5,319 bases of DNA. Source: a virus (taxonomy: Duplodnaviria; Heunggongvirae; Uroviricota; Caudoviricetes). The stretch's first letter is position 1; every line of letters begins with the position of its first letter. The translations under genes were made by a program, and so were the position numbers. Under the pieces are notes generated by a model. It made no database searches. It saw nothing but the letters and a program-made list of their open reading frames with translations, and was not told the DNA's origin. The stretch covers positions 1 to 5,319 of IMG/VR virus record IMGVR_UViG_2548876940_000001, one strand, 5' to 3'. This document shows, one piece after another, positions 914 through 2,081 of the stretch.

Positions 914-953
914 TCTCAACGGTTAGGTTGAGAGTTCGTCGATGTTAAAGAGC
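914..953 (-). promoter_or_regulatory. nutL: boxA plus phage 21-type boxB
   Basis: Minus strand reads GCTCTTTAACA (boxA, plus 953..943), a 9-nt spacer, then UCUCAAC-CUAACC-GUUGAGA (boxB hairpin, plus 933..914). The boxA matches the rrn/lambdoid consensus; the loop matches the phage 21 boxB class. It sits between pL and the N start, as expected. Confidence 0.65.
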
Positions 954-1000
954 CTGCCAATCTGTTCCGTTTGGCTTCCAGCCTCCTGCTGATGGCTTAA

Positions 1001-1053
1001 ATTTAAGGTCTCTTAATTTTTTGGTCAAGTGAATTTTTGAAGAAAACTTAATT
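1001..1053 (-). promoter_or_regulatory. oL/pL: two P22 c2-type operators with a candidate leftward promoter
   Basis: ATTTAAGGTCTCTTAATT (1001..1018) fits the P22 operator consensus ANTNAAGNNNNCTTNANT exactly; TTTGAAGAAAACTTAATT (1036..1053) fits with one mismatch. Minus-strand -35 TTGACC (1028..1023) and -10 TTAAAT (1006..1001) with a 16-nt spacer overlap the first operator. Confidence 0.55.
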
Positions 1054-1090
1054 TTATGGGCGCGAATTTAGTTTGTATTTGATTTTTAAC

Positions 1091-1120
1091 GGGAAATAAA
1101 AAAGGGGCGAAAGCCCCTTA
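1091..1120 (-). terminator. Rho-independent terminator of the repressor transcript
   Basis: Minus strand: stop TAA (1120..1118), then stem AAGGGGC / GCCCCTT with a 4-nt loop, then TTTTTTATTTCCC (plus 1103..1091). It separates the repressor gene from oL/pL. Confidence 0.7.
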
Positions 1121-1768
1121 AGGAAGGTTTGCTAGCTTGGCATCAACGACAACGCCAATGATTTTACAGTTCCCATTGATTTCAATCATTGGGTATTGTG
1201 GATTGAGTGGTTTCAGGAATTTTCTACCGGCATCAATAACTAACTTTTTGAATGTCGCCTCGTTTTCTCCTTCAAGTTTGGCGACTACCAGCTTTCCATT
1301 ACGTGGTTCGACTTCTGGGTCGACGAGAATAATTATCCCTTCAGGAATACTCAGTCCTGCCGGGGCAGTCATTGAATCACCTTTAACGTCGAGCCAAAAA
1401 GAGTCTTCAGAACAATCTACCGTTGTGTCGTACCAGTTATCTATTGCACGCCTATGATATGGCTCTACAGCTTCCATCCAACATCCTGCGCTTACCCAAC
1501 TAATTAGAGGATACGAACCTCTTGGATCATGCCTGCTGTGATAGGCAATGTTTGAAAGACTATCCTCTCCTTTCAACAGGTAATCAGGGGAGCACTGCAA
1601 AGCCTTGGCTAAGGCCAATAGGTTTTCGCCATTGGGCTCAGTTTCAGATCGCTCCCATTGGGAAATAGCAACATTAGACACGCCAACCATCTTGCCAAGG
1701 GCAGCCTGCCTAATCTTGAGTTCTTTTCTGCGAGCGCGAATACGCTCACCCATCAGTTGTGTATTCAT
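1118..1768 (-). CDS. cI: Prophage repressor, P22 c2-type (N-terminal HTH domain, C-terminal LexA/S24-like self-cleavage domain)
   Basis: 216-aa ORF. MNTQLMGERIRARRKELKIRQAALGKMVGVSNVAISQWER... matches the P22 c2 repressor as I recall it, and the C-terminal half resembles the 434/lambda cI cleavage and dimerisation domain (GDSM ... KIIGVV). Divergent from cro, with three operators between them. Confidence 0.9.
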   Translation of the reverse strand: MNTQLMGERIRARRKELKIRQAALGKMVGVSNVAISQWERSETEPNGENLLALAKALQCSPDYLLKGEDSLSNIAYHSRHDPRGSYPLISWVSAGCWMEAVEPYHRRAIDNWYDTTVDCSEDSFWLDVKGDSMTAPAGLSIPEGIIILVDPEVEPRNGKLVVAKLEGENEATFKKLVIDAGRKFLKPLNPQYPMIEINGNCKIIGVVVDAKLANLP

Positions 1769-1833
1769 AGTTAAGACATCTTAAATAAACTTAACTTAAG
1801 ATTCCTTTGGTGGTAATTTAAGTGTTCTTTAAT
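1769..1833. promoter_or_regulatory. oR: three P22-type operators carrying the pR/pRM switch
   Basis: AGTTAAGACATCTTAAAT (1769..1786) and ATTTAAGTGTTCTTTAAT (1816..1833) fit ANTNAAGNNNNCTTNANT exactly; ACTTAAGATTCCTTTGGT (1794..1811) has one mismatch. Gaps are 7 and 4 bp. Tentative pR: -35 TTAACT (1791..1796) and -10 TAATTT (1814..1819); cro has GGAG at 1837..1840. Confidence 0.7.
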
Positions 1834-1847
1834 TTCGGAGCGAGTCT

Positions 1848-2033
1848 ATGTACAAAAAAGATGTTATTGACCACTTCGGAACCCAGCGTGCTGTTGCTAA
1901 AGCACTAGGCATTAGCGATGCAGCAGTCTCTCAGTGGAAAGAAGTTATCCCAGAGAAAGACGCCTATCGATTGGAAATCGTTACAGCTGGCGCCCTGAAG
2001 TATCAAGAAAGTGCTTACCGCCAAGCGGCATAA
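1848..2033 (+). CDS. cro: Cro repressor, P22-type
   Basis: 61-aa ORF MYKKDVIDHFGTQRAVAKALGISDAAVSQWKEV... with an HTH motif, GGAG 7 nt upstream, first gene rightward of oR; matches P22 Cro as recalled. Confidence 0.9.
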   Translation: MYKKDVIDHFGTQRAVAKALGISDAAVSQWKEVIPEKDAYRLEIVTAGALKYQESAYRQAA

Positions 2034-2040
2034 GTAAATT

Positions 2041-2081
2041 GCTCTTTAACAGTTCTGGCCTTTCACCTCTAACCGGGTGAG
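2041..2081 (+). promoter_or_regulatory. nutR: boxA plus phage 21-type boxB
   Basis: GCTCTTTAACA (2041..2051), a 10-nt spacer, then UUCACC-UCUAACC-GGGUGAG hairpin (2062..2081). This matches the phage 21 nutR boxB RNA used in N-peptide structural work, as I recall it, and pairs with the 21-type ARM in N. Confidence 0.65.

Follow-up and report, generated by a model that had tools for sequence, protein, structure and literature searches.

Coliphage 21 (OL657228; imm21, as in lambda imm21 and DE3) is annotated with its early genes and sites in the order N, nutL, pL, OL1 to OL3, repressor, OR, cro, boxA-R, nutR, cII, O with four iterons, P, and ren. Phages 21 and P22 belong to one immunity class and have different antiterminators, and the replication genes of lambda are common to phage 21, and a mixture of P22-class, phage 21-type, and lambda-type parts has long been known as the normal arrangement in coliphage 21. 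The same linkage of N, repressor, and cro is found in natural prophages and in phages such as mEp235 and CUS-3, which makes it unlikely that the phage 21 record is a laboratory lambda hybrid here.

The stretch analyzed here (the window) comprises the 5,319 nucleotides at positions 1 to 5,319 of the IMG/VR record IMGVR_UViG_2548876940_000001. With a probability of about 0.95, it is the region for early regulation and replication in a lambdoid E. coli prophage that belongs to the imm21 class and is closely related to coliphage 21. Such a region is already known, and the phage 21 layout is present here in an E. coli prophage copy, with the gene and site order of phage 21 from N to ren. The features are the following.

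36-137, minus strand: relic of a phage 21-type N 3′ end
148-171, minus strand: intrinsic terminator directly after nun (hairpin at 154-171 plus a U run)
170-508, minus strand: nun, 112 aa, an intact gene of the HK022 type for transcription arrest (lambda exclusion), following N
511-803, minus strand: N gene, phage 21 type, disrupted (alignment with phage 21, O26 prophage, and mEp235)
914-933, minus strand: nutL boxB hairpin (fold with 7-bp stem and CUAACC loop; identical to the annotated phage 21 nutL)
944-953, minus strand: nutL boxA (GCTCTTTAAC); homology to P22 ends on the left at 936, just outside it
1000-1028, minus strand: PL promoter, TTGACC-17-TAAATT, intact (promoter scans; pL start annotated in phage 21)
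1001-1018, no strand: OL1 (consensus scan)
1036-1053, no strand: OL2 (consensus scan)
1065-1082, no strand: OL3 (placed by aligning the window with P22 and with the annotated phage 21 operators)
1102-1119, minus strand: terminator hairpin where the repressor gene ends (fold; annotated terminator in phage 21)
1118-1768, minus strand: repressor (phage 21 cI, P22 c2 class), 216 aa, with HTH_3 and Peptidase_S24 domains
1769-1786, no strand: OR3 (consensus scan)
1791-1817, plus strand: PR promoter, damaged (alignment with relatives)
1794-1811, no strand: OR2 (placed by aligning the window with P22 and with the annotated phage 21 operators)
1816-1833, no strand: OR1 (consensus scan)
1848-2033, plus strand: cro (P22_Cro family), 61 aa, Pfam match to P22_Cro with E 5.7e-28
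2041-2050, plus strand: nutR boxA, adjoining the right limit of P22 homology at 2051
2063-2080, plus strand: nutR boxB hairpin (fold with 6-nt CUAACC loop; identical to phage 21 nutR)
2143-2439, plus strand: cII (Phage_CII family), phage 21/mEp235 type
2152-2165, minus strand: cII site of PRE, TTGC-N6-TTGC, read directly from the sequence
2385-2461, minus strand: putative oop-like antisense RNA region (alignment to lambda 38599-38675)
2472-3371, plus strand: replication initiator O; four ori-lambda iterons lie at 2820-2906
3368-4069, plus strand: P, lambda/phage 21 type
4066-4356, plus strand: ren, lambda/phage 21 type

The complete genome of phage 21 aligns with window positions 594-4422 colinearly and in one block, at 97.5% identity and with four small gaps, and 32 of the 35 hundred-base bins in 901-4400 are at least 96% identical, most of them at 97-100%. 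Identity is lower in bins 601-700 (85%), 1001-1100 and 2101-2200 (93-94%), and 2401-2500 (82%), and this unevenness shows the window to be mosaic on a fine scale among members of the imm21 group rather than a phage 21 copy. Phage 21 is without a match outside 594-4422 (nun, orf68, ninB, and dam). A prophage of E. coli O26:H11 str. 11368 (NC_013361, 3126254-3131625) covers the window from 1 to 5319, at 98.6% identity counting gaps and 99.3% by megablast, with each hundred-base bin at 95% or above. The original prediction had correctly located the repressor, cro, the six operators, the arginine-rich motif (ARM) of N, the pair of boxB hairpins, and O-P-ren, and its assignment of repressor, cro, and operators to the P22 class, of N and nut to the phage 21 type, and of O-P-ren to the lambda type is upheld. 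Its interpretation of this combination as a module mismatch fails, since phage 21 alone spans all the parts. Indeed, the prediction had itself named a single reference phage of uniformly high identity over 900 to 4400 as the observation that would speak against a mismatch, and phage 21, like the O26:H11 prophage, does match that span at high identity.

When only P22, phage 21, and lambda are compared, the best-matching reference does shift along the window (P22 for 936-2051, lambda for 2378-4422, and phage 21 for N and boxB), as would be expected of a recent three-way recombinant in which a P22-like immunity cassette between phage 21-type nut sites had been joined, through new junctions, to a lambda replication module. 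That history is already refuted by the colinear phage 21 match and retains almost no credence: the N-nutL-repressor-cro-nutR unit is present in 486 of 5426 complete E. coli genomes (about 9%, a carrier being a genome that holds at least 80% of window 720-2100) as well as in many phages, and synonymous divergence (dS) from P22 is saturated (0.6-3.0) but is 0.014 from phage 21, in the repressor. The N-to-cII unit also occurs at 96-97% identity in lambda imm21, DE3, mEp235, HK629, phiv205-1, and Kapi1. The presence of laboratory phages in this group raises the alternative that the window is lambda imm21 or DE3 sequence, for example from BL21(DE3) contamination, and not a wild prophage, which we regard as even less credible than recent recombination. 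Lambda imm21, lambda h434 imm21, and DE3 do match window 34-4422 or 34-4286 at 97.3-97.7%; however, this is an identity of 97% and not of about 100%, the nun gene, the mEp235-type N 3′ end, the cII 3′/oop segment, orf68, and the dam methylase gene are foreign to those constructs, and wild O26:H11-type prophages match the window end to end at 98.6-99.3%. For an imm21-class prophage, the arrangement is textbook lambdoid mosaicism and of little discovery value, its use being mainly one of calibration, in that lambda, P22, and phage 21 motifs as the sole comparators make a native arrangement seem a chimera.

The similarity to P22 is old and at the level of the class, the repressor, cro, and operators being ancient orthologues under strong purifying selection. 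Like P22 immC, the window has a c2-type repressor (93% amino acid identity to P22 c2), a P22-type Cro (60/61 residues), their operators (OR1 identical and the others nearly so), and a conserved boxA, but it has neither the flanking gene 24 antiterminator with P22-type boxB nor c1. In P22, the gene 24 product (15% identity to N), c1 (23% identity to cII), and boxB are all unrelated to their counterparts in the window, and the replication genes, 18 and 12, are different ones. The repressor and Cro are those of phage 21 specificity, with 215/216 residues shared with the full-length phage 21 repressor reading and 61/61 with its Cro, and the helix-turn-helix region is identical in the window, phage 21, and P22. 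Three 18-bp operators lie at OL and three at OR. A scan with the 18-bp consensus ATTTAAGNNNNCTTAAAT, allowing up to 3 mismatches, finds four of them (OL1, OL2, OR3, and OR1) against 0.35 expected, a number reached in 0 of 200 shuffles. OR1 to OR3 and OL2 are identical to phage 21, OL3 differs at one base, and OL1 differs at three central bases, with changes at 1008-1009 that are found in none of the compared references (phage 21, O26, mEp235, and P22). The P22 and 21 repressors presumably recognize each other's operators, as the sequence identity here suggests; no explicit statement of homoimmunity between P22 and 21 turned up in the literature retrieved.

The match to P22 is limited to 936-2051, at 82.9% identity, and ends symmetrically between boxB and boxA, at 936 in nutL and at 2051 in nutR. 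The original prediction of a junction within a few bases of nutR is thus sound as a description of where homology to P22 stops, but not as a feature peculiar to this window. The cro stop codon (2031-2033) and the start of boxA-R (2041) are separated by 7 bases, and the spacing is equal in phage 21. Since dS from P22 is saturated (0.6-3.0 overall and 1.1-3.0 in the repressor, against an overall dN of 0.007-0.057), the junction is ancient and nothing here is recently from P22. The boundary between boxA and boxB is common to all imm21-class phages. A recent exchange with P22 in 1701-2000, where identity reaches 91-94%, was considered and rejected, because even that interval has a dS of 0.6-1.1, and its identity is explained well enough by purifying selection acting on the DNA-binding domain, the operators, and cro. 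The CUS-3 "bsq5 boundary sequence" was likewise set aside as evidence for a boxA linker, because it spans the whole N-cI intergenic region and marks nothing specific.

The reservation in the original prediction that the immunity region of phage 21 might itself be of the P22 class was justified, and N/nut and the repressor, cro, and operators are accordingly one inherited unit. With 0 occurrences expected, the window has exactly two of the combination GCTCTTTAAC-N(8-22)-CUAACC, one in nutL (minus strand, 921-953) and one in nutR (plus strand, 2041-2074). Both boxB hairpins carry the CUAACC hexaloop, and their positions agree with the limits of 914 and 2081 given in the original prediction. Residues 1-30 of N are identical to phage 21, and residues 8-29, the ARM, are identical to chain A of PDB 1NYB, the phi21 N peptide in complex with boxB. 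Just past the ARM, a 13-bp deletion at 712/713, which the original prediction missed, disrupts N and leaves an open frame only at 696-803 (35 aa, MVTIVWKESKGTAKSRYKARRAELIAERRSSEKLR) in which the ARM is kept; restoring the 13 bases gives an N of 101 aa, compared with 99-101 aa in relatives. A full-length N, with its NusA- and RNA polymerase-interacting parts, is therefore absent, and this copy reads as a pseudogene, although membership of the imm21 class by descent stands. The 3′ third of N is of the mEp235/O26 type and not the phage 21 type, which accounts for the 85% bin.

Lambda matches the window only over 2378-4422 (oop, O, ori, P, and ren, at 97.5%), as it does in phage 21, and O-P-ren is the replication module native to phage 21. 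O with its internal ori iterons, four in number as in both phages, P, and ren are 98-99% identical to the lambda proteins (297/299, 230/233, and 94/96 residues, respectively) and 99% or more identical to phage 21. In contrast, N, the nut sites, cI, cro, and the operators of lambda have no nucleotide match to the window, the Cro and cII encoded here share only 26% and 31% identity with the lambda proteins, and a dam-type methylase gene occupies the place that ninC holds in the nin region of lambda. At the 3′ end of cII and in the oop segment, where the 82% bin of the phage 21 comparison falls, the window follows the mEp235/O26 type and shares 82-83% identity with lambda and phage 21. An Rfam scan of the window at E ≤ 1 returned only a chance snoRNA match, with no curated family covering nut or oop here, and no Pfam model matched N, Nun, ren, or orf68.

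N(21)/nutL, OL, repressor, OR, cro, nutR, and cII constitute one co-inherited unit, the classical imm21 region. By analogy with well-studied homologues, repressor bound at OL1-3 and OR1-3 would shut PL and PR and would be counteracted by Cro. The ARM of N would bind the CUAACC boxB hairpins and, together with Nus factors at boxA, N would render RNA polymerase resistant to termination, while cII would activate PRE, O would bind its four iterons, and P would recruit DnaB.

In this copy the repressor, cro, cII, O, P, ren, and nun are intact, but it is probably defective, given the frameshift in N after the ARM and lesions in both hexamers of PR. The -35 hexamer is TTAACT in place of the TTGACT of relatives (G>A at 1793), and the -10 hexamer is GGTAAT in place of GATAAT, one base having been lost at about 1814 to leave a 15-bp spacer. 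PR has thereby lost the consensus G of the -35 and the essential -11 A of the -10, and the promoter scan that finds PR in phage 21 (10/12 matches) does not find it here. The independent IMG/VR contig L007 shares the 13-bp N deletion, the -35 G>A change, the OL1 and OL3 changes, and the repressor change M145I, and in it the same -10 position is hit by a substitution (GATAAT to GGTAAT) and not by a deletion; about 50 sites in O-P-ren differ between the two, as do the nin genes. Because the N deletion, the -35 change, and the hit at the same -10 base recur in this independent contig, a defective, non-inducible prophage lineage is probable. That the N frameshift and PR lesions are instead sequencing or assembly errors in a functional prophage is unlikely. 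The base lost from the -10 does sit in a short G run (GGTGG-T), and 30- to 40-mers across the N-deletion and PR-lesion junctions are absent from the 5426 complete E. coli genomes, GTDB representative genomes, and JGI metagenomes; with 24- to 46-mers, the only match in the complete genomes is a partial one to a PR 46-mer, and the GTDB and JGI sets give none. In IMG/VR, the N deletion is found in only one contig, and that database, too, has no copy of the exact PR 1-bp-deletion string. However, an error would have to explain why L007 shares these changes yet differs at the -10 and in O-P-ren, and a 13-bp deletion is untypical of read errors.

The recurrence of the haplotype in a contig with different O-P-ren and nin genes suggests that it has lasted long enough for recombination to move it between prophage backbones. 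It combines a frameshifted N, a PR with both hexamers hit, and an altered OL1 with an intact repressor and an intact Nun, suggesting the possibility, which we consider rather doubtful, that this crippled lineage is not simply decaying but is maintained as a non-inducible, host-protective cassette. Were that so, the repressor would confer immunity against imm21/P22-class phages and Nun would exclude lambda-type phages. With N dead, PR damaged, and nun intact, the window may represent one more prophage that keeps protective genes and loses lytic functions.

Phage 21 runs from N straight to ral, where the window has nun inserted after N; it lacks the N deletion, its PR is undamaged, and its nin region right of 4422 differs. 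The O26:H11 prophage and similar STEC prophages share the genes of the window, including nun, orf68, ninB, and dam, but in the O26:H11 prophage N is unbroken (101 aa), PR is wild type, and O (312 aa) has 39 extra bases that form two more iteron-like units. Phage mEp235 (JQ182731) matches 44-2479 at 97.7% and shares Nun, the type of N 3′ end, a repressor, cro, and nut sites of the imm21 type, and cII, whereas its replication module is another one, with an O-like protein and a DnaB-type helicase, and its N and PR are intact.

At the left end, Nun is identical to HK022 Nun (X16093, AF069308) at 111/112 residues and matches PDB 6ALG_N and 1HJI_B. It is of the expected size (about 109-112 aa), has the Nun ARM and the C-terminal KKWS motif, and adjoins the N position. 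The predicted fold of the terminator that follows it is GCCCACUUCGGUGGGUUUUUU, at -10.3 kcal/mol. The relic at 36-137, which lies beyond nun and away from its usual context, reads NRIYYSKPRSEMGVTCVGRQKMKLGSKPLI followed by a stop and is 96% identical to positions 1501-1604 of phage 21 (L001), the part that encodes the C terminus of N21.

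The ORF list, sequence reading, homology searches and Pfam scans describe the window as a standard lambdoid early region.

Genes and sites of the window (minus strand where marked)
From ATG at about 36, minus: ORF start from the ORF list, running off the left window edge
36-137, minus: relic of an N 3' end
170-508, minus: nun, with its own terminator
511-803, minus: N, disrupted; 35-aa frame at 696-803
914-933: nutL boxB
944-953: nutL boxA
1000-1028: PL
1001-1082: OL1-3
1102-1119: terminator, at the end of the repressor gene
1118-1768, minus: repressor
1769-1833: OR3, OR2, OR1
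1791-1817: PR
1848-2033: cro
2041-2050: nutR boxA
2063-2080: nutR boxB
2143-2439: cII
2472-3371: O, with four iterons inside (2820-2906)
3368-4069: P
4066-4356: ren
3' of ren: terminator, 68-aa hydrophobic ORF, ninB, start of a dam-type methylase gene

All the elements named in the original prediction are present. With P22 c2 the repressor shares 93% of its residues and the whole helix-turn-helix stretch, and Cro matches P22 Cro at 60 of 61 residues, placing both in the P22 class. Six operators were found, four of them (OL1, OL2, OR3 and OR1) by a consensus search allowing up to three mismatches, where 0.35 matches were expected and none of 200 shuffles reached four; OR2 and OL3 are weaker sites, located by aligning the window with the annotated operators of phage 21 and with P22. 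The pattern boxA-N(8-22)-CUAACC occurs exactly twice in the window (0 expected), at nutL and nutR, and both boxB sequences fold as hairpins with the six-base CUAACC loop. Residues 8-29 of N, containing the arginine-rich motif (ARM), are identical to the phi21 N peptide in the boxB RNA complex of PDB 1NYB, and O, P and ren match their lambda counterparts at 98-99% of residues. By analogy with well-studied homologues, repressor at OL and OR would shut PL and PR, with Cro as its antagonist; the arginine-rich helix of N would bind boxB and, with Nus factors at boxA, allow RNA polymerase to read through terminators; cII would activate PRE via a TTGC-N6-TTGC site (2152-2165); and O would bind its own iterons while P brings DnaB.

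This combination of P22-type immunity, phage 21-type N/nut and lambda-type O-P-ren had been read as a module mismatch, a reading at odds with any single reference phage that matches throughout. Identity was plotted along the window for all three phages, as originally proposed, and phage 21 aligns as one colinear block at 97-100% identity in most 100-base bins, with the same annotated sites in the same order; the mismatch therefore does not hold.

Nucleotide identity of the window to reference sequences
Phage 21 (OL657228): 594-4422, single colinear block, 97.5%
P22: 936-2051, 82.9%
Lambda: 2378-4422, 97.5%
mEp235: 44-2479, 97.7%
E. coli O26:H11 11368 prophage: 1-5319, 98.6%

The phage 21 genome used here is of Campbell/Young stock origin (PMC9119081). 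The accompanying suspicion that the immunity region of phage 21 might itself be of this type was correct, as that region is P22-class. N/nut and the repressor, cro and operators form one unit (imm21), and the lambda-type O-P-ren is the native replication module of phage 21. The window thus has the known imm21 architecture of a common E. coli prophage type.

The predicted junction close to nutR exists only in the comparison with P22, where it falls between boxA and boxB. P22 homology runs from nutL boxA (936) to nutR boxA (2051), with both boxB hairpins and N lying just outside, and the spacing of seven bases from the cro stop to nutR boxA is the same in phage 21. Against P22, dS is 0.6-3.0 (saturated) and dN 0.007-0.057, and against phage 21 dS is 0.014; the P22 homology boundary is ancient. 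Lambda homology begins at 2378, within the 3' end of cII, where the non-homology of imm21 classically ends on the right. Compared with other imm21 members, the window is a mosaic on a fine scale. Two stretches are of mEp235/O26 type, namely the last third of N, with 85% identity to phage 21 in 601-700, and the cII 3'/oop segment (2378-2470), whose identity to lambda and to phage 21 is 82-83% (82% in bin 2401-2500), and the nin region right of 4422 is of O26/Stx-phage rather than phage 21 type. The putative oop terminator hairpin carries changes on both arms, and the cII C-terminus differs accordingly (KKKSPVAAGDSKQIDMQF). The four O iterons are as in lambda and phage 21, whereas the otherwise near-identical O26:H11 prophage (L002 5834) carries an additional 39 bases, which make up two further iteron-like units, and its O is 312 aa long.

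This layout is widespread. In the phage collection, 13 records span 80% or more of window 600-2460, including mEp235, phiv205-1, DE3, lambda imm21, HK629 and Kapi1, and at least 80% of window 720-2100 is present in 486 of 5426 complete E. coli genomes. The N-repressor-cro linkage is kept at 83-87% identity in more distant phages such as CUS-3, N7, IME10 and Gally, and is therefore old.

The copy in the window is probably defective. In N, a 13-bp deletion at 712/713 that phage 21, mEp235 and the O26 prophage all lack shifts the frame directly after the ARM to give a 35-aa product; putting the 13 bases back in silico yields a 101-aa N. The PR -35 element reads TTAACT for TTGACT in the references (G>A at 1793), and a 1-bp loss at about 1814 turns the -10 element from GATAAT to GGTAAT with a 15-bp spacer, the lost A being the nearly invariant -11 base of sigma-70 promoters. 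A consensus scan recovered PR in phage 21 (10 of 12 matches) and PL, which is intact in the window, in both, and did not find PR in the window. Further changes absent from all references lie at the OL1 centre (1008-1009), position 1032, OL3 (1077) and repressor M145I (1334); such substitutions cluster in regulatory DNA, position 1032 lying upstream of the PL -35. Searches for the lesion junctions found nothing in the complete E. coli genomes (5426), in GTDB representatives or in JGI metagenomes. In IMG/VR, a single independent contig (L007) has the N deletion, the -35 change, the OL changes, the position 1032 change and M145I, with an A-to-G substitution in the PR -10 where the window has its 1-bp loss; in O-P-ren the two sequences disagree at about 50 sites, and in ninB at more. 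Since these lesions recur in L007, they are real and belong to a lineage, making read error an unlikely source. This lineage may represent mere decay, or may have been kept as a protective, non-inducible cassette.

The nun gene is intact, 111 of 112 residues being identical to HK022 Nun, a lambda-exclusion factor; RefSeq labels it only "hypothetical protein" in the O26 genome. It adjoins the phage 21-type N on its 3' side and starts 2 nt past the stop position of intact N, which suggests that translation of the two genes is coupled, a link that the frameshift in N would abolish. The N relic 3' of the nun terminator (36-137, minus; translation NRIYYSKPRSEMGVTCVGRQKMKLGSKPLI*) encodes the C-terminal part of a phage 21-type N at 96% identity to phage 21, while the C-terminus of the resident N is a different, homologous one of mEp235 type. 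With two homologous N 3' ends flanking it, nun is placed as a cassette swap through recombination inside N would leave it.

The 68-aa hydrophobic ORF between ren and ninB (4429-4635) had no match in the Pfam scan, and homology between L007 and the window is absent there. A phage N-6-adenine methyltransferase gene lies 3' of ninB (5087-5319), where lambda has ninC. Finally, the phage 21 repressor (L001 2126-2698, in the phage 21 genome) is annotated from an internal Met as 190 aa, and an upstream in-frame ATG gives a 216-aa reading that lines up with P22 c2 throughout; the start in the record therefore probably makes the protein too short.
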